Positions 1-62,379 of a stretch of 64,000 bases of DNA are shown here, in pieces. Origin of the DNA: a virus (lineage: Duplodnaviria > Heunggongvirae > Uroviricota > Caudoviricetes); IMG/VR virus record IMGVR_UViG_2778261035_000005; one strand, given 5' to 3'. Made by a program: the position numbers and the translations under genes. The first letter of the stretch is position 1; each line of letters begins with the position of its first letter. A model generated the notes under the pieces. The model saw only the letters and a list, made by a program, of their open reading frames with translations, did no database searches and was not told the origin of the DNA.

Positions 1-1038
1 AAGATGTCCAAGTCTCGCGGCACCTTTATTAAAGCCAGCACCTGGCTGAATCATTTTGACGCTGACAGCCTGCGTTACTACTACACTGCGAAACTCTCTT
101 CGCGCATTGATGATATCGATCTCAACCTGGAGGATTTCGTTCAGCGCGTGAATGCCGATATCGTGAACAAAGTGGTTAACCTGGCCTCCCGTAATGCAGG
201 CTTTATCAACAAGCGTTTTGACGGCGTGCTGGCAAGCGAACTGGCTGACCCGCAACTGTACAAAACCTTTACTGATGCTGCTGAAGTGATTGGTGAAGCA
301 TGGGAAAGCCGCGAATTTGGTAAAGCGATTCGTGAAATCATGGCGCTGGCTGATCTGGCTAACCGCTATGTCGATGAACAGGCTCCGTGGGTGGTGGCGA
401 AGCAGGAAGGGCGCGATGCCGATCTGCAGGCGATTTGCTCTATGGGCATTAACCTGTTCCGCGTGCTGATGACGTACCTGAAACCGGTACTGCCGAAACT
501 GACTGAACGTGCAGAAGCATTCCTGAATACAGAACTGACCTGGGATGGTATCCAGCAACCGCTGCTGGGCCATAAAGTGAATCCGTTCAAGGCACTGTAT
601 AACCGCATCGACATGAAGCAGGTTGAAGCACTGGTGGAAGCATCCAAAGAGGAAGTAAAAGCCGCTGCCGCGCCAGTAACTGGCCCACTGGCAGATGATC
701 CGATTCAGGAAACCATCACCTTTGACGACTTCGCCAAAGTTGACCTGCGCGTGGCTCTGATTGAAAACGCGGAGTTTGTCGAAGGTTCTGACAAACTGCT
801 TCGCCTGACGCTGGATCTCGGTGGCGAAAAACGTAATGTCTTCTCCGGCATTCGTTCCGCTTATCCAGATCCACAGGCACTGATTGGTCGTCACACCATT
901 ATGGTGGCCAACCTGGCTCCGCGTAAAATGCGCTTCGGTATCTCCGAAGGCATGGTGATGGCTGCTGGCCCCGGCGGGAAAGATATCTTCCTGTTAAGCC
1001 CGGATGCTGGTGCTAAACCAGGCCACCAGGTTAAGTAA
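1..1038 (+). CDS. metG: methionyl-tRNA synthetase, C-terminal part (5' end upstream of window)
   Basis: Frame open from window edge; translation starts at class I KMSKS motif and ends ...AKPGHQVK, recognised from memory as enterobacterial MetRS; stop 1036-1038. Confidence 0.93.
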
Positions 1039-1059
1039 TTAAGCAACCATTCTTCACAA

Positions 1060-1085
1060 TGCCCGGCAATACGCTGGGCATTTTC
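1060..1085 (+). terminator. rho-independent terminator after metG
   Basis: GC hairpin tgcccgg...ctgggca followed by TTTT. Confidence 0.5.
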
Positions 1086-1121
1086 ATTTAGACACAATCC
1101 CTTCTGATTTACACATACCCT

Positions 1122-1188
1122 AAAACAATTTGTTTTCTGCCTTTTGTTGATTGAGATAATAAACCACATAAGAAAACAACTTGTTTTG
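1122..1188 (+). promoter_or_regulatory. promoter/operator cassette: two AAAACAA-N-TTGTTTT palindromes flanking a GATAAT box
   Basis: Palindromes at 1122-1136 and 1173-1187, GATAAT at 1154-1159, immediately upstream of RBS/ATG 1200; same cassette recurs at about ten other gene starts. Confidence 0.55.
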
Positions 1189-1199
1189 GAGTGGTTTAA

Positions 1200-1499
1200 A
1201 TGTTGAACATTACCCAAGCCTACCAGGTGGCATTGATCAGCTCATCTCATACATCAGAGGAAGATGCTCGCCGATTCATGATCGCAAGCAATGAGCTGGA
1301 TTGGGTTTCACAAATTGAGTACGGTTGCATTGTCCACGCCGGGTTACAGGACGATGACTGGAAAGATGAGTTGCGTCGATATGGTATATCCGAGGGCGCG
1401 ATTGCGAACATTCAGAAAGTACTTGATGTAGGCTTTGACTCTGTACATTTTGATTGTGGCGCACCGGTCGTTGAAGGGCTTGAGTGCTGGCAATGGTAA
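1200..1499 (+). CDS. hypothetical small acidic protein (99 aa)
   Basis: ORF with GGAG RBS just 5'; own promoter-palindrome cassette. Confidence 0.55.
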   Translation: MLNITQAYQVALISSSHTSEEDARRFMIASNELDWVSQIEYGCIVHAGLQDDDWKDELRRYGISEGAIANIQKVLDVGFDSVHFDCGAPVVEGLECWQW

Positions 1500-1535
1500 T
1501 CCGGCAATCGCTTCATACTAGATAACGGAGAATTT

Positions 1536-1721
1536 ATGCTTAAAGAAGACTCATATCTACTAAAGGCGCTTGAAATGCGTGGCGTTGAACCTACAGTGAA
1601 AAACGCCCACGATATCTACCTTCAGTTTTCACCGGAGCTGAAACGGCTCATAAATCAATACGGGGTTAATGACTCAAGTGTTAAAGCGATGATAGATGAT
1701 GAATTAGACCATCTCATCTAA
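1536..1721 (+). CDS. hypothetical small protein (61 aa)
   Basis: ORF with GGAG-like RBS (acggag) upstream; short. Confidence 0.4.
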   Translation: MLKEDSYLLKALEMRGVEPTVKNAHDIYLQFSPELKRLINQYGVNDSSVKAMIDDELDHLI

Positions 1722-1873
1722 TCGTTATCCTATGATAATGGTTTCACTTTGAGATTGTTATTTTTCATAGCCAAAGCTGATGTTTGTGGAAGGTGGATTG
1801 ATAAACGGATGCGTATTTAGGTTATACAAGTGAGAAAATTGATAATATATAAACGCGATTTTTATGTGATGGA

Positions 1874-2443
1874 ATGGATGTGATGGAAACCCAGAACCAA
1901 CAAACAAAACCTCTGAATAACATTTATGCGTGGATTCTAGCGTTCATGCCTTTCTTCTTTGGAGTATTGCCGGAAGAGTATACCAATTACGCTATTATAA
2001 TTGGGGGTGTAACTACCATCGGTTTGTTAGTAGCTGACAGAATGGCTCTATCGGAGTCTGGCTGTGAACCACCTTCAATTCTATGGGGGGTATTCCTCCT
2101 GCCTGTCTATCTCTGGAAGCGCGCGACTATTACAAAAGGCAGCAGAGTGCCATTTATCATAATCGTTGCGTCGCTGGCTTGGATTATCTTCATCGGCATC
2201 CCACACAAGGACGAGGTTGCTCTTGAAGAAGCAGCCTGCCCTCTCGTGACAACTATTCTGAAAGAGAATAACGGTTCGACTGCACCAAAATGTATGAAGG
2301 TGACAATAGAGGACAAGGTGACGGATAAGTTCTATAGAGCAACGGCTACACTAGACAATGGTAATGACATTAACATTACTCTGGAACTTACCGGTGACAG
2401 GAACTTCTACGTCCGTGTTCCAAATGTTTATCTGAACAACTAA
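1874..2443 (+). CDS. hypothetical membrane protein (189 aa)
   Basis: ORF with several hydrophobic helices in N-terminal two-thirds. Confidence 0.5.
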   Translation: MDVMETQNQQTKPLNNIYAWILAFMPFFFGVLPEEYTNYAIIIGGVTTIGLLVADRMALSESGCEPPSILWGVFLLPVYLWKRATITKGSRVPFIIIVASLAWIIFIGIPHKDEVALEEAACPLVTTILKENNGSTAPKCMKVTIEDKVTDKFYRATATLDNGNDINITLELTGDRNFYVRVPNVYLNN

Positions 2444-2569
2444 CGGTTGCAACTTATTGATAATGGCGGTCACAATTTGATTCTTTTCTATAAGAATCCG
2501 TTGATCGCCACTACTCCCCTTCCATACCTGCAATCATAACCTTAAATATCAATAGGTTATGGTTGTTTA

Positions 2570-3300
2570 TACAAATAAGAAAACAACTAAATAACAGATC
2601 AACGAAACGTCAACGCTTTCACCCGATTTGGTCTAAAAAATTGATGTTTTCACACATCACTTCTTATACCCGTAACTCTACGCAGCAGACAGCGCCACAG
2701 CGTCCAATTTTCACCACAGACGACTCAACACACCACCAACAAAAACACACGCTCAAAATCGCTCCCGTTGCGTTACATAACCATATAAACAACTTATTTT
2801 CAGGCATAACAAAACAACTAAATAACACACATGCCATTCCCCAAAACAACCAACCTCTTTATGGCAGGCTACCGAAAAGACCCACCTCTTCTTCCCAGGC
2901 TACCGGACAACCAACCTAACTTTCACAGGCAATCCGAAAACATTCATACGCGCGATACCCACGATACGCCATTCCCCAAATAGCGAAGCACACCAGAATC
3001 ACTGAAACCCCCAACGAAGCCTGTAACCGCAAGGTTTCTCTCAATCCCAAAAGACACGAAACATAACAATCACGGGAAATGCCATTACCCAATACACGAA
3101 TAACTACAAAAGCCTTTCACACACTCCAGACAAACAACTCAAACACAACAACGAAAGGAATCGCCCACCTGCCATTACTCCATACACAGAGAAGAACAAT
3201 CACCAAAACGACGAGAACACCCCATAGAAGAACCACCGCAAAACGAACGAAACCACATACACCGACAGAGAAAACAACACACCCAATTCACCAACAGAAA
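2570..3300. other. strand-asymmetric A+C-rich tract (G and T nearly absent on + strand), no credible ORF
   Basis: Direct reading: long runs of only a/c; internal repeats (aaaacaactaaataaca at ~2580 and ~2810); ORF-track proteins here are low-complexity T/P/Q/H/N/K strings. Confidence 0.8.
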
Positions 3301-3484
3301 TAGTCGCCGTATAGAACATTCTGGAAGGAGTGAGCATTAACGCCTATAGAGAGGTTGAGACAGATAAAACACAACATGTATAGCGAAGAAGCCAGGTATG
3401 TATAAGTGGGGAGGGAAGGAGGGGTGTCGCCTCCTTTTTCGTATTTATTCAACTCCTGATTTTATCCCCCCGTAACACCCCTAC

Positions 3485-3645
3485 GGTCAGCCTTCGGTCA
3501 ATACAGGGAAAAGGCTGCATCCTGCTACAGAAACGGCTGGGTTGCCTTCGGGGAACGGCTGGGGATTTTCAGGGAAACGGTCGAGTTGCCTGTGTGGATT
3601 TCGGGAAAAGGCTCGATGCCGGTTCAGGAACGGCGGCGTACCGGT
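3485..3645. repeat. iteron-like array of ~6-7 degenerate ~22-bp direct repeats (core GGGAAACGGCTGG)
   Basis: cagggaaaaggctg / cagaaacggctgggttgcc / tcggggaacggctgggg / tcagggaaacggtcgagttgcc / tcgggaaaaggctcgatgcc / tcaggaacggcggcg in tandem. Confidence 0.6.
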
Positions 3646-3953
3646 ATAGCGAGAGGGAGAGTTGCGGCTACCCACCTGTAATGTGCGGGAAGAAGAGAGG
3701 CGCTCACGTGCAGGTGAACTTACTTACCGCTGGATTCCCTCTGAATGCCCAGCTACAGCATAATTGTGCCAGACAGCCAACGGGTCACAATCGATTTCAG
3801 TAGGTTTTCGGGGAGATGATTATTCTGCCCACCAGCCACCTTCGGCTACTAAATCAGAATAATGTAAAAAGTGTACTCGGTACTGAACCTGAAAACTCAC
3901 TGCCAAAACCACATTCACCGGAATAAAATCCTTTTTCGACTGTGCGTTATTGC

Positions 3954-3990
3954 GATAATAACACCATCAAGAAAACATGTTGTTTAAGGA
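3954..3990 (+). promoter_or_regulatory. promoter/operator cassette (GATAAT + palindrome)
   Basis: gcgataataacaccatcaagaaaacatgttgtttaagga; near-identical to cassettes at 6091 and 6575. Confidence 0.55.
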
Positions 3991-3997
3991 TTGCTTT

Positions 3998-4327
3998 ATG
4001 TTTACAAATATCGACATCAACCAAATCAAGAAATTAACTCAAAAAGAGTTTGATCAGTTTTATGAGTTAGAAGGTTGGTCTTCCACTCTGATCAATTCGC
4101 GGTGGGTGCTTGAGCTGATGACTCGTGATGACGCACCTGCTTTGATGATTTGCGACATGGGTGAAGATGCTGACTTTATGGATATGAGCGAATTTTGTGT
4201 GGACACATACAACCGCAGCCAGAAGTACTACTTCACATGCGATAGCGAAAATGACGTGATTTCTAAGGTCTATCTTCACCTCGTCCAGCATTGGGACGTT
4301 CAGGAGTTTCTTGAAGTATTCGAGTAA
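3998..4327 (+). CDS. hypothetical small acidic protein (109 aa)
   Basis: ORF; ATG 3998 chosen because the track start at 3977 lies inside the operator palindrome; RBS aagga upstream. Confidence 0.55.
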   Translation: MFTNIDINQIKKLTQKEFDQFYELEGWSSTLINSRWVLELMTRDDAPALMICDMGEDADFMDMSEFCVDTYNRSQKYYFTCDSENDVISKVYLHLVQHWDVQEFLEVFE

Positions 4328-4453
4328 CCCCAACCAAAGCCAGCATTGCTGGCTTAATTTCTCTATAGCCGCAGGGAAGAACCTGCATATAGCTCATGCA
4401 CCTGATCAATATGCTTTGTAGCCGTTTTCTTACTGGTATTATTTACGCCATTG

Positions 4454-4469
4454 AGAAAACAAGTTGTTT
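4454..4469 (+). promoter_or_regulatory. operator palindrome GAAAACAAGTTGTTTA
   Basis: Perfect AAACAA-G-TTGTTT palindrome 12 nt upstream of ATG 4481. Confidence 0.5.
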
Positions 4470-4480
4470 ACGGAGTTGTG

Positions 4481-4792
4481 ATGAAAAAATCATTGGTTCT
4501 TGGTCTGGACAAAGACCAGAAGAGAAAAGAGAAGCCTACGCTGGTTGCTCAATTAACTTTGCTGGACATCGTTGCCAATGGAACCTCTATTCGTCTGTTC
4601 CGTGAAACAGCGGTGTCTTTCGATAAAAACACCTTTACTCGTTATGTAATGAATGTTCGTCGCCAGCGTGGAAAAGGCTGGGTGGCATTTCAAAGAATGT
4701 GGCCGGAACATCAGCTCGAACTGGCTTTGATGGAAGTTAACCGCGTGGCCCAGCAAGAGATTCAGAGAGCATCAGTGATGGCAATAGCCTGA
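4481..4792 (+). CDS. hypothetical protein (103 aa)
   Basis: ORF, RBS acggag; track TTG start 4451 lies in operator so ATG 4481 preferred. Confidence 0.55.
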   Translation: MKKSLVLGLDKDQKRKEKPTLVAQLTLLDIVANGTSIRLFRETAVSFDKNTFTRYVMNVRRQRGKGWVAFQRMWPEHQLELALMEVNRVAQQEIQRASVMAIA

Positions 4793-4826
4793 TAATGTGC
4801 AAGTGGTAATTAGTCGACCGTACGAC

Positions 4827-4856
4827 AGCCCCGCCATCCTTACGGGGCTTTTTTGT
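4827..4856 (+). terminator. rho-independent terminator
   Basis: agccccg...cggggct hairpin followed by TTTTTT. Confidence 0.65.
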
Positions 4857-4918
4857 ATTGTAAGTACATACTTACGATCATAGAATAGAAAAATAACCAA
4901 TACACTACGGAGAGTGAA

Positions 4919-5314
4919 ATGACCGTTAAACGCGAAAAACTGACAGTTGATGTTTACTATGCCTCTGAAACCGCCGAAGGTAAGAATGTGGCAAAAATTA
5001 CCGTTGTTACGTACAACACCGAAACTGGTGCCGAAGTCCAGGCCAGTACGATCGTGCGTAAAGGTGATGCCTCCGGCGGCGAGTACGCGACTCAATACCA
5101 GTCCATTCTCGATGCAACTGACCCGCTGCTGCTGAAAATCGAGAACTACTTCCGCCAGGTTGATGAAGAGGTGTTTGAAACCATGATGAATATGGTTAAC
5201 ACCGTATTCGCCTCCAGCCTGAATACCAACACTACCTGGATTGGTCAGTACGGCCTGCGCATTACCTCTGGCATTCCTGCCGACACCTTAATCCCTGAAA
5301 GCGTATTCGCTTAA
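4919..5314 (+). CDS. hypothetical protein (131 aa)
   Basis: ORF with RBS (ggagag) upstream and terminator downstream. Confidence 0.55.
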   Translation: MTVKREKLTVDVYYASETAEGKNVAKITVVTYNTETGAEVQASTIVRKGDASGGEYATQYQSILDATDPLLLKIENYFRQVDEEVFETMMNMVNTVFASSLNTNTTWIGQYGLRITSGIPADTLIPESVFA

Positions 5315-5323
5315 TCCTCTTTA

Positions 5324-5350
5324 AATGGCGCGTAAACCGCGCCATTTTAT
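5324..5350 (+). terminator. rho-independent terminator
   Basis: aatggcgcg-taaac-cgcgccatt hairpin then TTAT. Confidence 0.6.
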
Positions 5351-5357
5351 TATGCCC

Positions 5358-5380
5358 GATAACAATTTGTTTTCTGCCTT
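5358..5380 (+). promoter_or_regulatory. operator palindrome (AACAATTTGTTTTCTGCCTT variant, as at 1122)
   Basis: gataacaatttgttttctgcctt matches 1120-1141 nearly base for base. Confidence 0.5.
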
Positions 5381-5431
5381 ATCTGATTTGTGAAAATGAT
5401 TTCACTGAAGCAACTTAATAAGGAAACCATC

Positions 5432-5806
5432 ATGGGACTTGATATCTATATCGAGACGCAGCCTAAAAACGATCTGAATAACGAGGCATCCAGAAAGCAG
5501 GTTGCTTACTTCCGTAAGTTCAATGCGCTCGTTGGGTGGATGGAGCGCAACGTAGGTGAAGTCGAAAATTGTGAGCTTTTAGAATTAACGATGAATGACA
5601 TTTGCCTTCTGAAAGCTCATTTGATGCACATAAACGAAAGCAATTGCGAAGAGTACTTGCCTACCCGGGAAGGTTTTTTCTTCGGCAGTCAGGAGTACGA
5701 CGAAGGTTACTGGCATGATGTGGGGGAGTTGAAAGAGCTTGTGGAAGATCTGATTAAGAACCACGACTTTCACAATAATAGACTGACCTTCTGCGCCTGG
5801 TGGTAA
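5432..5806 (+). CDS. hypothetical acidic protein (125 aa)
   Basis: ORF; ATG 5432 has aaggaa RBS, upstream GTG/ATG candidates do not. Confidence 0.5.
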   Translation: MGLDIYIETQPKNDLNNEASRKQVAYFRKFNALVGWMERNVGEVENCELLELTMNDICLLKAHLMHINESNCEEYLPTREGFFFGSQEYDEGYWHDVGELKELVEDLIKNHDFHNNRLTFCAWW

Positions 5807-5808
5807 AT

Positions 5809-5952
5809 ATGGGCGATTTCAAGAAACGCCTGAAGGAGAGAGCCGAGATGGTCAGAAAGCGAAACGCCTCTTCTGTCATCAGATACGCAAGGCAGTTTAG
5901 TCGCAACAACAAATCAGTTGAGGAAAAGATCCTTAGCGTAATCGGGCGATAA
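5809..5952 (+). CDS. possible small basic peptide (47 aa), translationally coupled
   Basis: ATG overlaps stop context of previous gene; ends just before terminator hairpin; below ORF-track size cut-off. Confidence 0.3.
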   Translation: MGDFKKRLKERAEMVRKRNASSVIRYARQFSRNNKSVEEKILSVIGR

Positions 5953-5956
5953 TTAT

Positions 5957-5982
5957 TAAGACCACCAGCATTGGTGGTCTTA
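5957..5982 (+). terminator. rho-independent terminator
   Basis: aagaccaccagcattggtggtctt hairpin; paralogous to hairpin at 6429. Confidence 0.6.
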
Positions 5983-6090
5983 AATGACTTTTAATAACCT
6001 AAGGTTAATTTTAAACCTGGCTATCAACTTCCAGAACCTTTCTTGTGTATTCAGCCTGTATTAACTTCTTTTATGCCTTATCTACACTGC

Positions 6091-6122
6091 GATAATTACA
6101 CCAACAAGAAAACAACATGTTT
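6091..6122 (+). promoter_or_regulatory. promoter/operator cassette (GATAAT + palindrome)
   Basis: gcgataattacaccaacaagaaaacaacatgttt. Confidence 0.55.
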
Positions 6123-6141
6123 ACGCAGTGAGGATATGCTC

Positions 6142-6423
6142 ATGACTGATTTCACCATTACCACCAAAGCACAAAATGTATTCCTCGAATCATGGCTGGA
6201 CTTGCCGGAAACAGAACAGCAAGAAATGGATCATGTGGATTATGACGAGCAGGTAAGCACGCGATTCTTCCACTTTGAGGGCTGCGTTTACGACATTGCC
6301 GACTTCATGCGAGATGACCGCTTCCCTGAATGGCACGCCAGTTATCCACTAAACGCCTTTGCCATGCTGATGATCCGTGTGGATGATTCAGGGGATACCA
6401 TCGACATCGGTCTGCTCCACTAA
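6142..6423 (+). CDS. hypothetical small acidic protein (93 aa)
   Basis: ORF; ATG 6142 is 7 nt after RBS tgaggat; many D/E residues. Confidence 0.55.
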   Translation: MTDFTITTKAQNVFLESWLDLPETEQQEMDHVDYDEQVSTRFFHFEGCVYDIADFMRDDRFPEWHASYPLNAFAMLMIRVDDSGDTIDIGLLH

Positions 6424-6428
6424 AGGCT

Positions 6429-6452
6429 AAGGCCACCAATGCTGGTGGCCTT
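6429..6452 (+). terminator. rho-independent terminator
   Basis: aaggccaccaatgctggtggcctt hairpin. Confidence 0.6.
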
Positions 6453-6574
6453 AAATGACCATCCTGTTTCCCTCAGGCTAATAACACCAACCTCTTACCT
6501 CCAGGCAACCGACAAACCCACCTGTTCCCGTCCGGCTACCGCAACTTTCCACTTTGACGCCTTATTCGTACAAC

Positions 6575-6607
6575 GATAATTAACACCAACAAGAAAACAA
6601 TTTGTTA
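6575..6607 (+). promoter_or_regulatory. promoter/operator cassette (GATAAT + palindrome)
   Basis: acgataattaacaccaacaagaaaacaatttgtta. Confidence 0.55.
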
Positions 6608-6627
6608 TTTACGATAAGGAATTAATC

Positions 6628-7110
6628 ATGAATTTTATCGCTACTGTGAACGCACCCGCACATGGCAATATCGCTGTAACGTTCTCTGACATTGAAAAAC
6701 GAGTACTTGGTGCATGGCGCGACAATGAGACGGTAGAACTGTCAGTACAAGAAAAATGCATTATTGCACGCGACATCATTGGTAATCGTCGTTACTCGCG
6801 GGTATTTGAGAAAGCGTATGTGGTAAATTCTGGATTCGGAACGTTCGTCTTCCCGGTACGCTCCGGGCGATTCTGCCAGTCCAAGCTGATTGAGTTCGCT
6901 ACGCAGATTTCTGTCTGGATTAAAACTCAATCGTCGTTCAAATTTTCCGACGATGAAGCAGTATCGCAGGGGATGCGAATCGCCAACAATGCAATTAAAT
7001 GCAAAAATATTACGTATACCGCTGGCGTTGACACATGGAAACTGTTTTGCGCTAACTTTATGCTGAATGTATACGCAAGCAACCGCATCCACATCCTTGA
7101 TGGCGTGTAA
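6628..7110 (+). CDS. hypothetical protein (160 aa)
   Basis: ORF with RBS aagga and downstream hairpin. Confidence 0.55.
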   Translation: MNFIATVNAPAHGNIAVTFSDIEKRVLGAWRDNETVELSVQEKCIIARDIIGNRRYSRVFEKAYVVNSGFGTFVFPVRSGRFCQSKLIEFATQISVWIKTQSSFKFSDDEAVSQGMRIANNAIKCKNITYTAGVDTWKLFCANFMLNVYASNRIHILDGV

Positions 7111-7115
7111 CTGAG

Positions 7116-7141
7116 AAGAGGGCCAGAAACGGCCCTTTCTC
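7116..7141 (+). terminator. terminator-like hairpin
   Basis: gggcc-agaaac-ggccc with flanking AGA/TCT. Confidence 0.45.
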
Positions 7142-7144
7142 TAT

Positions 7145-7290
7145 AGACACCAGCTGCCGCAGGGAAATTTTCAGAAACGGCGAGGAACGTATTCATGAGC
7201 CGACGGGAAACGGCCAGGATTTTTTCGGGAAACGGCTGCATTCGCCTTTATGTAGAAAAAAACATCGGGAAGCTGGTGGAATCCAACCAG
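7145..7290. repeat. second iteron-like array (GGGAAACGGC units)
   Basis: cagggaaatttt / cagaaacggcgagg / acgggaaacggccagg / tcgggaaacggctgcattcgcc / atcgggaagctgg. Confidence 0.55.
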
Positions 7291-7655
7291 CGGTTGTCGG
7301 ACAGGCGAGCGGGGAAAATTATGATGACTTTCGTCGCCTGAGACATCCAGATTTCTTTCGTAGCATAATCACATACGTGATTAAGTGGTGTGATTATGTG
7401 AAAAATCACGCGCACATAATACGCGAGCGGATACGGAACAAAACAAAATGCCGATCCGCGCCGACAAATAAACGCGGATCACATAGCAAGACTAAAAGCC
7501 AATGATTAACCATACGCTATAGCGCAATATAACGCGTTTTAAGCGCGTTAATGTGTTAAGTAATGGGTATGTACTGGTAAGGATATAAAAGCGCGTCTAT
7601 GGCGTTATTTGGGTGCTTATTTTTATGTTGTTGGAGTGAGTTAAAGACAATAAAA

Positions 7656-9478: not shown

Positions 9479-10003
9479 TCAAAAAGGCAAAATTCGTTCA
9501 ACCCAATCGAACAAAACAACTATTTTTCTACCGTTCTCGACACGTAGTGTAACCTGACAAGCATCTGCGCCTGCTGACACCCCCTCAATTTCACGGCCAT
9601 CCGCCATGTACACCCTTATAGATTTGTTTGCTTTGTAGGCTTGGTTGCAAATTGCAAAAAAATCGCGGCGTGATGGCCGATTATCGACATAATCAGGGTG
9701 AACTGTTAGTCGACCTTTGAAATCGTGAGCGATACTGTCAACCACACCTGATTCAATTGTACTAATGCGTTCAAGTGGGAGCCTTATACGATTTTCTTTG
9801 TCAAAAGGGGCTGGGCAAAGGTCAACTTTGTTACGAGATGGCATGAGGCCATAAACGTACATGCAAAACGCCTGGCCATCTTCGAGAGTGACCCTTACAG
9901 GAATTTGTTCTCTGCGCCAGAACATCAGTAGTTTTTCAACGTTAGTGTAATCTCGCGGCCAGAGTTCAGCTTGGATACCGTAGGTAATATCTTTGGTTGT
10001 CAT
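9479..10003 (-). CDS. hypothetical protein
   Basis: ORF; start trimmed to ATG 10003 to avoid overlap with upstream lipoprotein gene. Confidence 0.45.
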   Translation of the reverse strand: MTTKDITYGIQAELWPRDYTNVEKLLMFWRREQIPVRVTLEDGQAFCMYVYGLMPSRNKVDLCPAPFDKENRIRLPLERISTIESGVVDSIAHDFKGRLTVHPDYVDNRPSRRDFFAICNQAYKANKSIRVYMADGREIEGVSAGADACQVTLRVENGRKIVVLFDWVERILPF

Positions 10004-10007
10004 GTCA

Positions 10008-10430
10008 TCACAGAGTTGTTGGCAGAATGTCGATGTCACCAGAATTGCTGGTGAACACCCTGAACGCTTTTGTGTCTCCATTCTTCAGAGTCGTTTCTCG
10101 CTCTTGACGAGCGGGGTTTAGAGCACATAAACCTGCACCTTCAAGAGATGCACCCACAATTAATTCTCCGGCATTTAAATGGAAAGTCGCTTTTTCGCCT
10201 GTAGCCAGTTTTGCGACAGTTTCGCCGTTGATGAAAATGGAAGCATCACATCCAGCTCCTACAAAACCTGTGTCTCTCATTACCACCAACGTAGCTGGCG
10301 CTGCGCTTTGATACTTGAACACTTTGGCCTGCGGTGCTGGTTTGGCGTCATGGATTGATATTGGGCGTGATTGGCACGCGGTAAGCATCAACACTGGTAA
10401 CGTTAGTAGAGGGAGAAGCGAGTATTTCAT
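10008..10430 (-). CDS. lipoprotein (141 aa)
   Basis: Signal peptide with lipobox LTAC (MKYSLLPLLTLPVLMLTAC). Confidence 0.6.
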   Translation of the reverse strand: MKYSLLPLLTLPVLMLTACQSRPISIHDAKPAPQAKVFKYQSAAPATLVVMRDTGFVGAGCDASIFINGETVAKLATGEKATFHLNAGELIVGASLEGAGLCALNPARQERETTLKNGDTKAFRVFTSNSGDIDILPTTL

Positions 10431-15328: not shown

Positions 15329-15595
15329 ATGACGTTAACCGATAAACAAAAGGACATCATCAAAACGCTCAATCTCGGTTATGAGCGAGGTCATCTACTT
15401 GACCTGGACGAATTGCTTGAAGTTTTGCCGTACAAGACAACCAAGCAAAGTATCCAGTTCTCAATTCGCGCTCTGATAAAAAAGGGGCTGGTGGAGAAAG
15501 GGCATACGCGCCAACGCAGTGACAATCGCTATCACCGCCGGACTCTTGGGTTAACCACTTTAGGTCGAGCCAAAGCGAAGTTACTGGTGATGTAA
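15329..15595 (+). CDS. small basic protein, possible winged-helix DNA binder
   Basis: 88-aa ORF; helix-rich basic segment SIRALIKKGLVEKG. Confidence 0.4.
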   Translation: MTLTDKQKDIIKTLNLGYERGHLLDLDELLEVLPYKTTKQSIQFSIRALIKKGLVEKGHTRQRSDNRYHRRTLGLTTLGRAKAKLLVM

Positions 15596-15710: not shown

Positions 15711-15750
15711 GAAAACAAGTTGGTTAGCAGATGCAGTAAACAAGTTGTTT
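15711..15750 (+). promoter_or_regulatory. operator palindrome plus half-site (GAAAACAAGTTGG ... AAACAAGTTGTTT)
   Basis: Same motif family as left-arm cassettes. Confidence 0.5.
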
Positions 15751-15751
15751 T

Positions 15752-15780
15752 AGAGCGCATGGACGCGCTCTGTGTGTTTT
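15752..15780 (+). terminator. terminator-like hairpin in leader of packaging operon
   Basis: agagcgc-atggac-gcgctct followed by gtgtgtttt, 12 nt before TerS start. Confidence 0.45.
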
Positions 15781-24669: not shown

Positions 24670-24677
24670 CTCAATTG

Positions 24678-24693
24678 GTAAGTATATACTTAC
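24678..24693. promoter_or_regulatory. perfect palindrome GTAAGTATATACTTAC
   Basis: Member of TAAGTA motif family, upstream of major tail gene. Confidence 0.45.
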
Positions 24694-24743
24694 TATTAGC
24701 GCAATGAATGCGTAGAATTAACGGAAAAAGGAGTTTTCCATCA

Positions 24744-33315: not shown

Positions 33316-36300
33316 TTGAACATGGAACAGTTCAAGAAGAAAAAGCTACCGCTGTTTATTGCCGGTGCGGGTGGTAAAAAAAGCAGCAAAAGCTCCAGCC
33401 GTACACCGGTTGAAGCCGACGATACCGTAAATTCTCGTGCAATGGCCGCTATCCTCGATCTTCTTGGGGAAGGGGTAATTGGCGGCTTAGTAAATGGCGC
33501 AAGATCTATTTTTATCGACGATCTGCCGATTGTAAATGAAGACGGTTCCTCCAACTTCAGCGGAATCACATGGGATTTTCGCGACGGTTCACAAGACCAG
33601 ACTCCAATGTCTGGCTTTGATTTCGTTGAAACGCCTAAATCCGTCAATATCCAGTTAAAAAAAACACATTATGTAACGGTTTCAATCGATAACGATGAAG
33701 CTGATCGGGTTCGTGTCATCATGAAGTTTCCTTCTTTGCGAAGCATAGATAAAAAAACTGGTGACACGAACGGTACGACTGTTGAGTACAAGTTCCAGAT
33801 AGCAAATGGCGACTCAACATTTGTAGATGTGGTCGCGGAAGGTGAAAAAAGCGTTGGCATTAAGCTAACAGCAAAGAAGACCAGCGTTTATTACCGTAGC
33901 TACGAGCTGAAGCTGCCTAAGCCTGGACGCGCATACAAGGTTCGTGTAGTCCGTATTACCGATGATAACAGTAGCCAGTATCTCTATAACGATACATGGG
34001 TGGATTCAATCGGGGAAATTGTCGATACACCGATGAACTATCCAAACTCTGTTTTAGTTGGATTGAAGGTAAACTCTGAGCAATTCGGCAGCACCATGCC
34101 ATCTCGCTCTTATCTGGTGCGTGGCCTAAAAATTCGAGTACCTTCAAACTATAACGAGTCCAGTAACACTTACGCTGGGGTATGGGATGGCACTTTTAAG
34201 CTGTTGTCTTCTTCGAACCCCGCGTGGATTCTCTTTGATTTGCTGACCAATGCTCGATATGGCCTTGGTCAGTATGTGTCGGAATCTATGATTGACCTTG
34301 GCCAGTTGTACCAGATTGGTCGATATTGTGACGAAGAGGTCGATGATGGCTTTGGTGGCAAAGAGAAACGCTTTGCAATCAATACGCAGATCACCAGTCG
34401 ACAGGACGCATACCGACTAATTCAGGATATTGCTGGAGCATTCCGCGGCATGGTGTTTTGGGCTGGTGGGATGGTTAACATCATGCAGGATAGCCCATCA
34501 GATCCGGTAATGATGTTTACCAACTCTAACGTCAAAGATGGATTGTTTACCTATAAAGGTTCTGCGCGTAAAGATCGCCCATCCGTTGCGCTCGTAACCT
34601 ACAACAACAAGGAGGACGGTTATAAGCAAAACATCGAGTACGTTGAAGATCAGGACGCAATGCGCCGTTATGGTGAGCGTAAGACAGAAGTCGTAGCATT
34701 TGGCTGTACAAGCCGAGGGCAGGCTCACCGAGTTGGTTTGTGGCTTTTATATACCGCCAGAATGGAGTCGGATGTAATTACATTTACTGCCGGCTTAGAC
34801 GCGTCATTTCTGATGCCTGGTGAAACCGTTCTGATTCAGAACAAATATCGCGCAGGCAAACGTAACTCAGGTCGAATTGTGGCGTTTACCAAAAACAGCG
34901 TCACACTCGATGCGCCGGTGTCGTTAGCCAAAGGCGGCTGCTTTATTCGAATACTGAATCAGGAAGGCAAAATCGTTGAACGCGATGTTCTTGAAACTGG
35001 CGAAAATATAACAAAAGTTACGTTTTCAAAATCCCTGTCTTCGGCTGAAACGCCTGTTTTGAACGGCGTCTGGACTATTACAGAACCAGACCTCGAACCT
35101 ATGCGCGTTCGCATCGTTAACATCGCGCAGGGGGAAACGCCGGGTAGCTTTGACATCACCGCTGTTGAGAACAATCCGTCTAAATATGAGGCGATCGACA
35201 ATGGTGCAACGCTTATCCCGCAAAATACGACGGTATTGGACCCGACTTACTCCAAGCCGTCTAATTTGCAAATCACCGAAGGGACTTATCTCTCAAGCCC
35301 TGGCAACCTGTCAGTAAAACTGACTGCAACATGGGAAGGGAAATCTCCAGAGTATTGGATCAGTTGGCGACGTTCTGATGAAAACAATGTATCGAACTGG
35401 CAATCGGCGCGTGTAACCGAAGAGCAATACGAAATCGTTAATGTTGCGGAGAATGGACGCTACGACTTCCAGCTGTATGCGGTTTCATTCAACGGTAAAA
35501 AAACAGAGATTATCAGTACCGTTTATCAGGTGCTGGGCACAATGACACCGCCAGATGCCCCAACGTCATTAACGGTCGTTGGAGACTATCGTAATGTGAT
35601 ACTGAATTGGGTTAATCCAGATTCGGTAGACCTTGATCACATTAATGTTTACGCATCCCAGACCAACAATCTGGATACGGCGAAACTGATCGCAGAGTCT
35701 GCAAGCACCACCTTTACACATGCTGGTCTTGGGGATAGCGAAACGTGGTATTACTGGGTTCGAGCATCGAACAAGCGAGGTATGTTAAGTCCTCCGAACT
35801 CAAACTTGGGTACAGAGGCGACAACTCGCGATGTACTGTCGTTCCTGACTGGCAAAATTACATCTTCCGAGCTTGGTCAGGCTCTGCTTGAGGACATCAA
35901 CAGCAAAGTCTCTCAAGAAGCAGTTGACGAGTTAAATGAGCATATCAACCAGAGCGTCGAATCTTTGGAGGGGTCGGTAAACGACGTTAAGGAAGATATA
36001 GCTGAATTAGATAAGCAGTTCAGCGATAACCTCGCGGATTTTGAAATAAAATTCAACGAGCGTAGCGATGCTTTGGAGAACGCACAAACCGAGCTTAAAG
36101 GTGAGGTTTCGGCAACGATCGACAAGGTCAATGAAGCGTTTGAAAAAATTGATGCTACTGATGCTGCAATTGTTGAAATCGAAAACACCGTATCTGAACA
36201 CGATAAAGCTCTCGCTAATACAGTCGAGGCAATAAAGGCTGCAAGAGATGAAGCGGCGGCTCTTATTGCTAAGGAAAGCGAGGCTCGTGTTGAAGGCGAT

Positions 36301-44890: not shown

Positions 44891-44906
44891 GAAAACAAGT
44901 TGTTTC
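44891..44906 (+). promoter_or_regulatory. operator palindrome GAAAACAAGTTGTTTC upstream of parA
   Basis: Same palindrome family as left arm. Confidence 0.5.
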
Positions 44907-44940: not shown

Positions 44941-45609
44941 ATGACCAAGATCTTTGTGGTTGGCGGCACAAAGGGCGGGCCTGGCAAATCCACCGTTGCC
45001 CAGCAAATTGCCGTTTGCCTGAAAGTCAAAAAGAAGAAGAAGGTTTATATCACTGATATAGATATTCAGCGCACGACAACAAGCTGGTGTGAAGACCGTC
45101 GACAGAACGAAGACCTTGAGCTGATTCCTTTTGCATACGTTCAGGATGACATCATTAAGCACCTAAAATCGCTTCAGGGTAGAGCTGAGTTTGTAGTGGT
45201 AGATGCTGGTGGCTTTGACTCCGAAATTCAGCGACAAGCGATGCTGATGGCCGACGTTATCATTATCCCGCTTCGTCCTAAGCGTCGTGATTTGAAATCT
45301 CTGCGTGACATCGATCCTATTATCGACAATGTTCGTAATGTAAACGATAAAGTGAAGGTCCGCGCGGTCATGAACCAGTGCCCGGCTTTGCCATCACAAG
45401 TGTCTCGCATTCTGGCGGCTAAAGAGATTGTCGAGACGTTTGGCATCGAGTCTGCGCCAGTCAATCTATATAACCGCAACGTCTACGATGATGCGGAAGA
45501 GTCTGGTCGTTCTATCTTTGAAATGACCGGTAGCGAGCGCGACAAAAAGGCGGAAGCCGAGTTTGAAGAATTTGTAGATTATCTGTTGAGTCTGGAGGAA
45601 GAAGAATAA
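44941..45609 (+). CDS. parA: ParA-family partition ATPase
   Basis: Deviant Walker A GGTKGGPGKST; 222 aa. Confidence 0.85.
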   Translation: MTKIFVVGGTKGGPGKSTVAQQIAVCLKVKKKKKVYITDIDIQRTTTSWCEDRRQNEDLELIPFAYVQDDIIKHLKSLQGRAEFVVVDAGGFDSEIQRQAMLMADVIIIPLRPKRRDLKSLRDIDPIIDNVRNVNDKVKVRAVMNQCPALPSQVSRILAAKEIVETFGIESAPVNLYNRNVYDDAEESGRSIFEMTGSERDKKAEAEFEEFVDYLLSLEEEE

Positions 45610-45968
45610 TGTCCATGAAAATGGGTGACCTAGCAAAGCGCAAAGAGCCTGATGCACCGGCCAAGAACACAACTCCTTTGCGCCAACCAGTCAGACCACA
45701 GGGACGCCCGACTCGTGGCAAAGAGAAAATTAAAAGCCGCACAATGTCACTGGAAGACGAATACTTCGAACTGCTGGAGATGATGAAGTTCATCCCTCGC
45801 TTCGAGAAATTCACCCGCTCTGATGTGATTCGTGCTGCTATTTTCCATCTTGCGGAGAAGACACCGCAGGAAATCGAGGACATCGTAAAGCTGAACGAGG
45901 CGATCACAGCTGCCGATGTCACGATGCGTACCGATGAAATTAAACGCGAGTTGATGAAGAAAGGTTAA
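45609..45968 (+). CDS. RHH centromere-binding protein (ParG-like)
   Basis: Basic disordered N-terminus + C-terminal RHH-like segment; ATGA overlap with parA. Confidence 0.55.
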   Translation: MSMKMGDLAKRKEPDAPAKNTTPLRQPVRPQGRPTRGKEKIKSRTMSLEDEYFELLEMMKFIPRFEKFTRSDVIRAAIFHLAEKTPQEIEDIVKLNEAITAADVTMRTDEIKRELMKKG

Positions 45969-46019: not shown

Positions 46020-46772
46020 ATGCATTCGTTAGTATTTGCATTTAAAAACATACTCAAGAATGTTATAAACATACTAGGGATGTTAAATATTTTTTTGTCT
46101 GTGAGGGTGAGGAGAAAAGATATAAAAGATAAATTAAAGGAACTTAACAAAGAAAAAGAACAATTAAAAAGCGAAGAAATTATTATTGATTTATACAAGA
46201 AAAAACTCGCATCTAGCAAGGGGAAAGCTAATGATAAAATCAAAGGAAAAATAATTCACTATATTATTGCTAGAGAGTTGGGGAATGATCCTGATAATGA
46301 AGATTTGCGACATAATCTTTTTACAAAGATAAAAGAATCAGAAGAACAGGTTGAAGTTCTGGTTCATCAAAGAGAAGTAAGTGAGCAGGCGAACAAAAAA
46401 GAAACGGTTGTCAATTTATTTTTATTGTATGAAAAAAATAAATTGTTTAAAGCTAAGGGGTTGGCTGTGTTTCTTATAGTTATAAACTTAATTATAGTTG
46501 CGACTCTCGATCTTCCAGCTTGGTCATTGATTATAAGTTTTTTTATTCTCTCTTTGATTATGTTGAAAGATCAGATACTTACTATTCGTGTCTCTAAAGG
46601 ATATTTTGGCACAAGTGCGTATGAAGCGGTTCAATTGCTTAAATTCATCAGAGAAAATTCAGACAAATTTGACTCAGATGATAATGACGGTAGCCCACGA
46701 CGGATATTGAATCCGAAGGGAACAACAAAAAAATCAGACAACCTATTCGATAAAGGGTGGCAAAATGTTTGA
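46020..46772 (+). CDS. AT-rich gene: membrane protein (about 250 aa)
   Basis: N-terminal TM, K/E-rich coiled-coil segment, two more TM helices; composition visibly more AT-rich than flanks. Confidence 0.55.
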   Translation: MHSLVFAFKNILKNVINILGMLNIFLSVRVRRKDIKDKLKELNKEKEQLKSEEIIIDLYKKKLASSKGKANDKIKGKIIHYIIARELGNDPDNEDLRHNLFTKIKESEEQVEVLVHQREVSEQANKKETVVNLFLLYEKNKLFKAKGLAVFLIVINLIIVATLDLPAWSLIISFFILSLIMLKDQILTIRVSKGYFGTSAYEAVQLLKFIRENSDKFDSDDNDGSPRRILNPKGTTKKSDNLFDKGWQNV

Positions 46773-48118: not shown

Positions 48119-48134
48119 AAAACAATTTGTTTAA
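48119..48134 (+). promoter_or_regulatory. operator palindrome GAAAACAATTTGTTTA upstream of helicase
   Basis: Same palindrome family. Confidence 0.5.
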
Positions 48135-60234: not shown

Positions 60235-60332
60235 ACTGAAAATGAGTTACTTTTACTCTTGATCCTATAAGAATCTATGCCTAATATACTGTTTACTTAT
60301 ACAGTGCATCGGCGTAACTCGGTGATTGTCAT

Positions 60333-61436
60333 ATGAAAAATAGCTTTGACAGAGCACGCGCTGCGGAGAACACCTCAAAAGAGGCGATTGAGTATCTCGA
60401 AAGAGCATCTCAAATGCAGGCCGTTATGATCTCCCAGGTCAGCAATGACATGAGATTCTCGGACGCATTCATGTTATTCACTCGCTTATCTCTGCTGATA
60501 ACAAGACGTCGGCCAGAGATCGCTGTTCATTGTATTTTGATACATGTTTTGCCGCACATTGCCGATGTAAAAGTAAGTGATATTAATAGGTTCATGGTGA
60601 ACCAACTGGTCAACCCACTAATACTGGATGGCAAAATTGTTATGGGTCGCCGCGTTTTCTCTCTGATGAAGCAGTTCCTCAGCTGGTGCGCCTTCCAGGG
60701 GATGATCGACGTGTCACCGTTAAACGATATGTCACTTAACAAAGTTGCCGGTGGCGCAAAGCCCACACCTCGCGAGCGGAAGCTAACCGACGCAGAGGTA
60801 TGGGTGTTCTGGAATATATGGGACTACTTCAATGTGTGTGCTGGTACAAAATGGGCGGCCAGGCTATGTCTTGTATCCGCAAGACGACCTGACGAAGTAC
60901 TGCGGGCTAAAAAAAGTGAGTTCAACCTCCAGCGTGGGGTTTGGAATCAAGGCAAGAGAAACAAATCAGCCCGTGAGCATTCTCTGCCTTTAAGCACATT
61001 AATGCGCACATGCATTGAAGAGTTATTCGAATATGGTAAAGGCAGCCAGTGGCTTGTGCCTTCGAATAAAAAAATCGGGAAAGATCTTCCGATGTCTAAA
61101 GTGGCAATAGCCCAGGCATTACGCCGTATCCTGGAACGACCAGAACTGATGGAGCTTGAGCCATTTACACCACGAGATTTGCGTCGTACTGCGCGTAGTT
61201 ACTTCCCAGCATTAGGCATAAGCCAGGAGGTATCACGTAAAATCATGAACCACAGTCTTGAGGGGATAGATCGGGTCTACGACCGGCACGATTATATGGA
61301 CGAGATGCGAGACGCCTTAGAAAGTTTCTCGACGTACATCGCATCAATCGTAGAGCAACCGGATTTAGACGAAATTGACCACAAATTCAAGGGAGATCGT
61401 CTATCGACAGAGCTTATTCGTGTAAATTTTTCATAG
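60333..61436 (+). CDS. tyrosine integrase / site-specific recombinase
   Basis: C-terminal catalytic motifs ...PRDLRRTARS... and NHSLEGIDRVYDRHDY (H-x-x-R ... Y). Confidence 0.75.
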   Translation: MKNSFDRARAAENTSKEAIEYLERASQMQAVMISQVSNDMRFSDAFMLFTRLSLLITRRRPEIAVHCILIHVLPHIADVKVSDINRFMVNQLVNPLILDGKIVMGRRVFSLMKQFLSWCAFQGMIDVSPLNDMSLNKVAGGAKPTPRERKLTDAEVWVFWNIWDYFNVCAGTKWAARLCLVSARRPDEVLRAKKSEFNLQRGVWNQGKRNKSAREHSLPLSTLMRTCIEELFEYGKGSQWLVPSNKKIGKDLPMSKVAIAQALRRILERPELMELEPFTPRDLRRTARSYFPALGISQEVSRKIMNHSLEGIDRVYDRHDYMDEMRDALESFSTYIASIVEQPDLDEIDHKFKGDRLSTELIRVNFS

Positions 61437-61817
61437 AGACTTTATGGCCTCAACAACCTTTTGTGATGCGCCTTTCTCTTTACCGAATCGCTCGTTATAT
61501 GCAGCAAGAACCTGTTTTTCGTCCTCGTTAAGAGGAGCAGTGCCTTCTTTGTATAAAAATGCTGCGAGTTCGGGTTGGCGTTCTTCCAGCACCATCATCA
61601 TAAGACGACTTGGCTCAATACCCAGTGCCAGCGCCAGCGGACGAACCTTATCGATAGGCAAAGGAATTTTGCCGCTTTTAATTAAAGAAAGGTTGTTGGC
61701 GTTTTTATACCCAATTGTTTTGGCTATCTGGGCCTGGCTCATAGGTGAGGATTCAATCAACCCTGCGATAAAAGCAGCGTAGCGACTTTCTATAAATTCA
61801 ATCTTGTTGTCAGACAT
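61431..61817 (-). CDS. XRE-family HTH repressor (CI/Cro-like)
   Basis: HTH MSQAQIAKTIGYKNANNLSLIKSGK; divergent from downstream rightward genes. Confidence 0.7.
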   Translation of the reverse strand: MSDNKIEFIESRYAAFIAGLIESSPMSQAQIAKTIGYKNANNLSLIKSGKIPLPIDKVRPLALALGIEPSRLMMMVLEERQPELAAFLYKEGTAPLNEDEKQVLAAYNERFGKEKGASQKVVEAIKSL

Positions 61818-62281: not shown

Positions 62282-62379
62282 TCCCTCTTCTACCTGCGCG
62301 AATGGCTTAGTTCCCTGTTCGCGCAGTGCTACATTAAACACACTAGTAAATAATTTGTTTTCATAACAAAGGATTAGCC

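Follow-up and report, generated by a model that had tools for sequence, protein, structure and literature searches.

A cluster of ten small genes in an SSU5/pHCM2-type phage-plasmid

Between positions 1200 and 7110 of IMG/VR record IMGVR_UViG_2778261035_000005, ten small genes, designated here A to J, follow one another on the + strand and encode proteins of 47–189 amino acids (aa). As judged from nucleotide identity, synteny and gene content, the 64,000 nucleotides (nt) that were analysed from this record (hereafter, the window) belong to an SSU5/pHCM2-type phage-plasmid of Escherichia coli. Indeed, positions 1000–7500 retrieve full-length matches of 97–98% identity in plasmids of ca. 110 kb from 245 complete E. 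coli genomes, and none in chromosomes, together with matches in Escherichia phage Cyrano (97% identical) and related phages. The gene order is likewise the same as in Cyrano, Salmonella phage SSU5, plasmid pHCM2 of S. Typhi, Klebsiella relatives and the Yersinia pestis plasmids pFra/pMT1. The ten genes, with the isoelectric point (pI) of their products, are the following:

1200–1499, + strand: gene A, 99 aa, pI 4.3; the RefSeq start is at 1278
1536–1721, + strand: gene B, 61 aa, pI 4.9; begins 36 nt past A, without a cassette (see below) of its own
1874/1883–2443, + strand: gene C, predicted membrane protein of 186–189 aa; variable among relatives and absent in Cyrano
3977/3998–4327, + strand: gene D, 109 aa (116 aa from 3977), pI 4.2, net charge −14
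4481–4792, + strand: gene E, 103 aa, pI 10.5; kept in E. coli, Salmonella, Klebsiella and SSU5
4919–5314, + strand: gene F, 131 aa, pI 4.5
5432–5806, + strand: gene G, 124 aa, pI 4.7, net charge −12
5809–5952, + strand: gene H, 47 aa, pI 11.3; starts 2 nt past the stop codon of G
6142–6423, + strand: gene I, 93 aa, pI 4.1, net charge −15
6628–7110, + strand: gene J, 160 aa, pI 9.2

Nine of the ten proteins (all but H) match PHROG families over their full length, every one of them described as of "unknown function", and we found no paralogy among the ten. In comparisons with the orthologues from Salmonella, Klebsiella, Yersinia and SSU5, the ratio of nonsynonymous to synonymous substitution rates (dN/dS) is 0.08–0.18 for E, G, I and J, which indicates that these are real genes. 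F is far more diverged than these four, with a dN of 0.36–0.71, and A, B, C and D differ from one close relative to another.

Compared with the remainder of the window, the array is enriched in acidic proteins. The pI is 4.1–4.9 in A, B, D, F, G and I, while E, H and J are basic, and the strong negative charge typical of DNA mimics is found in A (net charge −11) as well as in D, G and I. In a rough set of 11 open reading frames (ORFs) for the array, six show a pI below 5, and in four the net charge is lower than −0.08 per residue; the window has 33 further ORFs of up to 200 aa, of which 15% and none, respectively, fall below these limits.

A promoter-operator cassette repeated across the element

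Most units of the array are preceded by the same predicted cassette, consisting, in this order, of the extended −10 motif TG-n-GATAAT (or TATTAT), around 12 nt (ACACCAACAAG), the palindrome AAACAA-N-TTGTTT, 8–20 nt with a Shine-Dalgarno sequence, and the ATG. The cassettes and operators are located as follows:

1115–1190, + strand: cassette of A-B(-C), with palindromes at 1123–1135 and 1174–1186 (centres 51 bp apart) and TGaGATAAT (hexamer 1155–1160)
3945–3990, + strand: cassette of D, with TGcGATAAT (hexamer 3954–3959) and palindrome 3973–3985
4434–4470, + strand: cassette of E, with TGgTATTAT (hexamer 4437–4442) and palindrome 4457–4469
5359–5397, + strand: promoter of G-H, with palindrome 5360–5372 over the −35 position and extended −10 TGtGAAAAT (hexamer 5392–5397)
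6067–6122, + strand: cassette of I, with TGcGATAAT (hexamer 6091–6096) and palindrome 6110–6122
6552–6607, + strand: cassette of J, with GATAAT at 6575–6580 and palindrome 6595–6607
15713–15780, + strand: operator at terS (15791), with palindromes 15713–15725 and 15738–15750, then a GC hairpin and a T run
44893–44905, + strand: operator upstream of a type Ib parA gene (44941)
48120–48132, + strand: operator upstream of a DnaB-like helicase gene (48152)
62348–62360: weaker operator copy before a cobT-like gene

Allowing for one mismatch at most, the palindrome occurs 14 times in the 64 kb, against an expectation of 0.47, and none of 100 shuffled sequences reached this number. Eight of the 14 sites are concentrated within 1123–6607, and the others precede terS (two sites), parA, the helicase gene and the cobT-like gene, or lie at 46436. 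At A, D, E, I and J the palindrome is placed ca. 12 nt past the −10 hexamer, near the predicted transcription start. A second site, of an upstream type, precedes it by exactly 51 bp, covering the −35 position and directly following the preceding terminator; in the window it is found at A, and it also appears at the A- and I-type cassettes of pHCM2, SSU5, the Klebsiella elements and pFra. G has only the upstream type of site, C and H, like B, lack their own cassette, and F is read from a different promoter (see below).

We favour the view that the palindrome is a DNA operator for a putative dimeric protein rather than an RNA element, because the upstream copy lies outside the transcript and the spacing is fixed at 51 bp; moreover, the hairpin that an RNA element could form would have just 4–5 pairs, rich in A-U, and we rejected this as the main reading. 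The known boxes of host regulators (LexA, Fis, IHF, CRP and others) do not fit the palindrome. The LexA pattern matches the window at chance level, and its sole match in the array (4595) falls within gene E. Elsewhere in the window, a LexA-box-like sequence, CTGTTTACTTATACAG, occupies positions 60289–60304, directly upstream of an integrase-like gene (60333) whose Cyrano orthologue is upregulated in macrophages. A search for AAACAA-N-TTGTTT in the literature library that was covered found no paper with this motif.

The core of the cassette is nearly invariant in the Salmonella, Klebsiella and Yersinia relatives. For instance, the 62 nt upstream of I are 90% identical in pHCM2, pFra and SSU5, while dS for gene I itself is higher than 1, i.e. 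its synonymous sites are saturated. Likewise, the cassette of A-B(-C) has an identical arrangement in SSU5, pHCM2 and pLAO18, and the layout upstream of terS, with palindromes followed by a hairpin, is kept in pHCM2, Klebsiella and pFra; this succession of a promoter and a terminator suggests that the late operon needs antitermination. In a more distant relative from Pectobacterium the operator is not clearly conserved. A scan for the exact cassette pattern, with one genome per bacterial species, retrieved three genomes of Enterobacterales (Kluyvera, Buttiauxella and Y. pestis) and one further contig that had been binned to a metagenome-assembled genome of Bacillota. From its sequence and distribution, we conclude that the cassette marks a predicted element-wide regulon, because the operator precedes not only the array genes but also the terminase operon, parA, the helicase gene and the cobT-like gene.

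Transcription units, terminators and a second type of promoter

D, E, F, G-H, I and J constitute separate units, each ending in a hairpin terminator. The hairpins found 3′ of D, E, F, H, I and J are stable and mostly followed by T-rich runs, with z-scores (z) of −2.1 to −6.3:

4337–4355, + strand: terminator hairpin of D, −12.4 kcal/mol, z −4.3
4826–4850, + strand: terminator hairpin of E, with T run
5327–5347, + strand: terminator hairpin of F, −15.2 kcal/mol, z −5.2
5956–5983, + strand: terminator hairpin of H, paralogous to the hairpin after I
6428–6454, + strand: terminator-like hairpin of I, with a weak T tail
7117–7141, + strand: terminator hairpin of J, −17.7 kcal/mol, z −4.8

A-B(-C), on the other hand, looks like a single operon, because the gap of 36 nt between A and B contains no terminator and C has no cassette. 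Ten Chi sites (GCTGGTGG) are present on the + strand of the window and four on the − strand, and three Chi sites lie in or near terminator hairpins of the array, at 5962, 6441 and 7272.

The promoter of F differs from the rest:

4858–4886, + strand: promoter of F, TTGTAA-17-TAGAAT, enclosing the inverted repeat GTAAGTAcaTACTTAC (4860–4875)

This type of promoter recurs only once in the window, at 24678 (region 24670–24705), before a tail-protein gene starting at 24708, and both copies have in common the inverted repeat GTAAGTAyATACTTAC; they may define a second regulon. A related sequence, GTAAGTGCTTAC, is found in the control region of a cI-like repressor gene (61850). We argue that the array is functionally mixed, because I and J are strongly conserved, E and J are basic, and the promoter of F is of a late type.

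These results modify the picture given in an earlier note on this DNA, which had described an array of seven or more short ORFs of 93–160 aa, several strongly D/E-rich and most of them acidic, each with a private promoter-operator cassette and a hairpin terminator. The small genes are real, but they number ten and cover a wider range of sizes, and acidity holds for six of them. The cassettes are equally real, although they are copies of one element-wide element that is missing from B, C and H and replaced in F, and the terminators were found as described except within A-B(-C) and between G and H. A noncoding block of 1.5 kb that interrupts the array was overlooked.

A conserved noncoding block interrupts the array

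The block, which separates C from D (2444–3976), does not contain any ORF conserved between the E. coli, Salmonella and Klebsiella versions, yet these are 72% identical in the alignment, and a block with comparable composition and repeats is still discernible in the Pectobacterium relative. Between 2600 and 3300, the + strand contains 37–49% A and 30–35% C. The block and its surroundings include the following features:

2575–2596 and 2806–2827, + strand: half-operator cassettes
2787–2799, + strand: full palindrome
2849–2939, + strand: three tandem 30-nt repeats
3413–3440, + strand: conserved hairpin terminator with T run
ca. 3500–3640, + strand: GGGAAAMGGC-type direct repeats, ca. 6–8 copies with a spacing of 21–31 nt
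6486–6545, + strand: two further copies of the 30-nt repeat, ACCnACCTnTT-N5-CnGGCnACCG
7160–7240, + strand: GGGAAAMGGC-type direct repeats, ca. 3–4 copies, again with a spacing of 21–31 nt

The GGGAAAMGGC-type repeats thus flank genes D to J and have an iteron- or centromere-like appearance, but they are unlikely to constitute the plasmid origin, because RepA is far away (at 60.6–61.7 kb of Cyrano, i.e. outside the window). A search of the block against Rfam gave no match, and the ORFs called within it in Cyrano are silent in the lysogen (PMC9928086). Its role might be that of a long RNA rich in C, of an origin-like site or of a loading site of the ParB type. In several relatives, a small gene that is missing from the window lies left of the block (SSU5 2440–2480, and also pHCM2, pLAO18 and, at ca. 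1140, Klebsiella); it is placed behind a canonical LexA box, TACTGTTTATATATACAGTA, and its promoter is TTGACC-17-TATAAT.

Most array genes are near the detection floor in a Cyrano lysogen

The expression of the orthologous genes could be followed in the RNA sequencing (RNA-seq) data available for Cyrano in its natural lysogen, strain LF82 (PMC9928086, Table 1 and S1 Table), from which all expression data below are taken. In lysogeny broth (LB), the orthologues of A, D, E, F, G and I show values of 2.3–4.4, expressed as log2(fpkm+5), where fpkm are fragments per kilobase per million and the floor is 2.32; the orthologue of J is slightly higher, at 4.0–5.1. Among the other genes that carry the operator, terS, the helicase gene and the cobT-like gene are low in the lysogen and parA is moderate. 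Under stress, inside macrophages, the array genes increase 4- to 30-fold, up to values of 5–7.8 (7.5–7.8 for D, 7.4–7.7 for J, ca. 6 for I and 7.3 for F), and a LexA-like S24 peptidase gene (SOS-type) rises from 7.4 to 12.3. The genes also differ in their timing in macrophages, because D and J peak at 1 h, whereas F, like the capsid and tail genes, increases from 1 h to 6 h. Together, these low values in the Cyrano lysogen indicate that the array is repressed in the plasmid state and that it is not a set of morons.

H departs from this pattern. It is the only gene of the window array that passes the five-fold criterion of the authors, who list it (CYRAN_109) as a moron in LF82; CYRAN_102, a coiled-coil gene that is not in the window, also passes (PMC9928086). 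H is transcribed around 10-fold more than G in the Cyrano lysogen, despite the gap of 2 nt between them, and this implies that H has an internal promoter or a separate small transcript.

These data also bear on whether the array consists of lysogenic-conversion morons that would benefit the host during plasmid residence. A private promoter and terminator is the classic layout of morons, and the classification of H agrees with it, but A, D, E, F, G, I and J are at or near the floor in the lysogen and were excluded by the five-fold criterion, so that we consider this explanation most improbable.

Protein families and anti-defence candidates

Searches of Pfam, NCBIfam and PHROGs with all ten proteins retrieved only DUF5983, for A, and PHROGs of unknown function. 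In particular, none of the ten showed a Pfam match to ArdA (PF07275), ArdB/KlcA (PF03230) or Ocr at E values up to 0.1, nor was there any in NCBIfam, and these family libraries did not reveal any recognisable DNA-binding or enzymatic domain, or any toxin domain, in the array proteins. Sequence searches of the PDB with D, E, F, G, I and J, and with a profile of G, yielded nothing meaningful, and a multicystatin match to D was discarded because no domain passes.

A contains a DUF5983 C-terminal domain (PF19419, E = 7.5e-13, 49 bits versus a cutoff of 27, model positions 3–90 of 90; phrog_5003), which in E. coli is otherwise found downstream of the cbtA toxin gene in CP4-44-like islands. The alignment of B with T7 gp5.9 (PF25708) is below threshold (17.1 bits, with a cutoff of 24.5) and spans residues 2–18 on a model of 46 positions. 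D is an ORFan confined to SSU5-type elements from E. coli. F is syntenic across the supergroup and diverges fast, with 37–54% aa identity between genera; a 52-kb phage-plasmid of Klebsiella carries it too, immediately before terS. I and J occur throughout the SSU5 supergroup, Yersinia pMT1/pFra included, and nowhere outside it. No fold could be recognised for I, and the name "ABC transporter" that it carries in RefSeq and UniRef is unsupported, because it is a soluble acidic protein of 93 aa without any Pfam hit; the names of the exact-sequence clusters are otherwise all "hypothetical".

G is the most informative of the ten proteins, with 79 homologues down to 29% identity that share the invariant motifs MGLD..YFRKxN..LPTxxGFFFGSxEYDxxY..WW. 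A homologue with 37% identity is encoded two genes away from ArdA (PF07275) in an IncI-like plasmid, and another, 48% identical, immediately precedes an ArdB/KlcA-type gene (PF03230), a PolyVal metallopeptidase and a TraI_2 relaxase in a different conjugative element. Other homologues are placed among early or nucleotide-metabolism genes of phages of 138–165 kb. The contig of a 138-kb phage carries, at 5202–6390, two tandem paralogues of the G family beside genes for a PIF1/UvrD-like helicase, a dUTPase and a DNA ligase. The model of G (predicted local distance difference test, pLDDT, of 94) resembles YfbM and the DNA mimic DMP12 in its fold, and its comparison with predicted viral structures retrieved phage proteins that are all uncharacterised, several of which belong to large phages of Pseudomonas, Erwinia and Klebsiella. 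G is the best anti-defence candidate of the array. An anti-defence role is plausible for some of its members, considering the neighbourhood of G (and, more weakly, that of A and of families found in the relatives), the resemblance of the G fold, and charge.

The array could alternatively provide competition or exclusion functions against other mobile elements or the host, such as superinfection exclusion, toxin/antitoxin-like activities or host shutoff of the kil type. C is a membrane protein, a type often used for exclusion, the family of A is linked to the toxin-antitoxin loci cbtA/cbeA, and H is a highly basic peptide of 47 aa that is expressed in the lysogen; besides, tight repression would be expected of toxic genes of the kil type, by analogy with the kil-kor system of IncP plasmids. 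We nevertheless find this improbable, because exclusion genes are normally on in the lysogen, where the array genes of the window are silent except for H, and no toxin domain was detected.

Candidate regulators of the operator

Five proteins of the element were considered as candidates to bind the operator: one of 88 aa (15329–15595), another of 119 aa (45609–45968), J, E and a FljA-like protein. The 88-aa protein, which looks like a winged helix from its sequence, is encoded just upstream of the terS operators and is kept in all the relatives that were checked, Yersinia included. The 119-aa protein follows a type Ib ParA of 222 aa (44941–45968 region), is transcribed in the lysogen and is called a RelE/ParE toxin in the Cyrano annotation, although it looks like a centromere-binding protein with a predicted ribbon-helix-helix (RHH) in its C-terminal half. 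Its candidacy is weakened by its absence from Yersinia pMT1/pFra, which keep the cassettes; this absence is not decisive, because pHCM2 and these plasmids are closely related. Both J and E are basic proteins whose own genes are located behind the operator.

The FljA-like protein, annotated as a "repressor of phase-1 flagellin" (9479–10081, − strand; PF03614, E = 2.5e-84, with a weak hit to an Hfq domain), is encoded next to the array in all relatives; FljA has been reported to bind mRNA. A cI-like helix-turn-helix protein (61431–61817) is an unlikely binder of the operator, given that its own control region contains other repeats, of the GTAAG/CTTAC type, which resemble those in the promoters of F and the tail-protein gene.

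Genomic context of the array

The array is located between metG and a regulatory/helicase/ParB-like block that precedes terS. The first ORF of the window (4–1038) corresponds to the C-terminal part of a methionyl-tRNA synthetase, and the rest includes ParB-like, terminase, capsid, tail and lysis genes and a toxin-antitoxin pair, as well as genes for the type Ib ParA, the DnaB-like helicase, a primase, a ligase, the integrase-like product and the cI-like repressor; structural, lysis, partition and replication genes were assigned by synteny with the Cyrano annotation. The window therefore combines siphovirus genes for structure and lysis with plasmid genes for partition and replication, as is characteristic of SSU5/pHCM2-type elements. 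Plasmids of this type are classed as non-mobilizable by PLSDB, and no relaxase gene is annotated in the regions of Cyrano that are syntenic with the window.

At the locus of the array, relatives contain genes for DUF1380, DUF4942-methyltransferase and S-adenosylmethionine (SAM)-methyltransferase products. The first two presumably are leading-region families. The distantly related SSU5-like plasmid Drgb1, from Pectobacterium, carries a defence gene with a Shedu SduA domain (34260–35150) inside its tail-gene module.

A putative repressor-gated establishment array

We propose that the array is an accessory, repressor-gated set of establishment, or early, genes that includes at least some proteins neutralising the host or its defences, an explanation for which we see the balance as about even. 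Most units are read from the extended −10 sigma-70 promoter with the 13-bp palindrome near the start, and a single DNA-binding protein encoded by the element would hold the regulon down during residence as a plasmid. Upon entry into a naive cell, or after induction, the promoters would fire with the host RNA polymerase alone until the regulator accumulates. The acidic products would then most likely bind and neutralise host proteins, either defence nucleases or DNA-binding proteins, while the functions of I, J and E may instead be core ones, lytic or regulatory, and F belongs to a different class of promoter, common to the tail-protein gene at 24708.

The main competing explanation, which we consider possible but on the whole unlikely, is that the array, or at least E, I and J with the noncoding block, constitutes a core module of the lytic cycle, for regulation, replication origin or DNA metabolism, and that the acidity is incidental. 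I and J are indeed found with the same cassettes in elements of E. coli, Salmonella, Klebsiella, Enterobacter and Yersinia, with a dN/dS near 0.1, and E and J are basic. Iteron-like GGGAAAMGGC repeats also flank D to J, next to the conserved repeat-rich block of 1.5 kb, the operator is common to helicase, parA and terS, and the promoter of F to the tail-protein gene. Nonetheless, RepA is encoded elsewhere, the array proteins lack any recognisable DNA-binding or enzymatic domain in the libraries searched, and closely related elements differ in A, B, C and D. Moreover, G homologues accompany ArdA or ArdB in conjugative elements lacking a phage cycle.

Several observations weigh against an establishment array with anti-defence members. 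The conservation of I and J and the strong purifying selection on them look more like the signature of a core function than that of arms-race cargo. None of the array proteins matches a characterised anti-defence family in Pfam, NCBIfam, PHROGs or PDB sequences, and a DefenseFinder screen of elements from the SSU5 group found only Rad, in a minority of them (10.1101/2025.09.12.675607). Also, parA bears the operator and yet is moderately expressed, so that repression is not all-or-none; the Cyrano RNA-seq data are population averages from a related element, not a time course; and no match in the PDB or Pfam settles which of the candidate regulators binds the operator.

The earlier note had interpreted the locus as a candidate anti-defence island, on the grounds that its architecture is typical of early-expressed anti-restriction and DNA-mimic genes. 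This architecture is not diagnostic, because the same cassette heads the terminase operon, parA, the helicase gene and the cobT-like gene. Profile searches of each protein for Ocr/ArdA-like matches, as proposed there, gave none, and the sole hint is the sub-threshold alignment of B with gp5.9. What is retained from that interpretation are the insulated units with operators, their silence in the plasmid state, the acidity, the location of G homologues beside ArdA/ArdB, and the genes for DUF1380 and DUF4942-methyltransferase products that relatives have in this place; it is not sustained by family matches, by the core-like I and J, or by the promoter of F.

In its most specific form, which is tentative and rather doubtful, our proposal would be that a previously undescribed repressor-operator regulon, extending over the whole SSU5 element, releases small acidic inhibitors upon entry, among them a new anti-defence family, that of G, shared with conjugative leading regions and large lytic phages. 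The A/C-rich block would then belong to the same programme, either as a long RNA with a function or as an origin or loading site of an unusual type.

Phage-plasmids of the SSU5/pHCM2 type are common in E. coli, Klebsiella, Salmonella Typhi, Shigella and Yersinia pestis (as pMT1). If the array is an establishment module, it would offer around six small proteins as candidate inhibitors, with the G family as the most remarkable one, given its presence in conjugative plasmids and large phages as well. The cassette itself is a compact and portable promoter-operator, and knowledge of its regulator would explain the switching of a widespread element between its plasmid and phage lives. Apart from the genes, the conserved A/C-rich noncoding block is of interest by itself.

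Comparison with known systems

The kil-kor system of IncP-1 plasmids (RK2) comprises the operons kilA/klaABC, kilC/klcA-klcB and kilE/kle, under the control of KorA, KorB and KorC. Their genes are small and mostly of unknown function, and share common palindromic operators that are also present at replication and partition genes; they are strongly repressed once the plasmid is established and probably fire on entry, and one of their products, KlcA (ArdB-type), is an anti-restriction protein. The array appears to resemble this system in having one operator both at promoters of small genes and at maintenance genes. It differs in the operator itself, AAACAA-N-TTGTTT, in belonging to a siphovirus phage-plasmid without conjugation genes, and in that no homology to kla, klc or kle was found in Pfam or NCBIfam.

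In the phage-plasmid P1, a single repressor, C1, acting at many dispersed operators, holds the lytic and accessory operons off in the plasmid state, and the operator sites described here are spread around the element in an analogous way. However, the P1 operators are asymmetric 17-mers, whereas those of the array are symmetric 13-mers, and the cI-like gene of the element has different repeats.

At the level of individual proteins, the acidic members resemble T7 Ocr, T7 gp5.9 and ArdA in being small and very acidic and, if our proposal is correct, in being first expressed on entry. With Neisseria DMP12 (PDB 3w1o) and E. coli YfbM (PDB 1ryl, DUF1877), G shows 9–14% identity, and the N-terminal domain of DapD scores higher; what is conserved in the G family, moreover, are aromatic motifs and not acidic ones.

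As with the anti-defence islands in the leading regions of conjugative plasmids (Samuel et al. 2024, PMC11541004), the array is a cluster of small genes on one strand, for which we propose expression during establishment; G homologues are located beside ArdA/ArdB in such elements, and genes for DUF1380 and DUF4942 products appear at the locus in relatives. The differences are that there is no origin of transfer (oriT) or relaxase, in agreement with the non-mobilizable class in PLSDB, that no known anti-defence gene is present, and that the promoters seen are double-stranded, of the sigma-70 extended −10 type with an operator, and look unlike single-stranded Frpo promoters. With a different operator, no oriT or relaxase and no known anti-defence gene, the array is a member of none of these systems; the nearest ones are, by their logic, IncP-1 kil-kor and the C1 regulon of P1 and, by their content, the leading-region island (PMC11541004).

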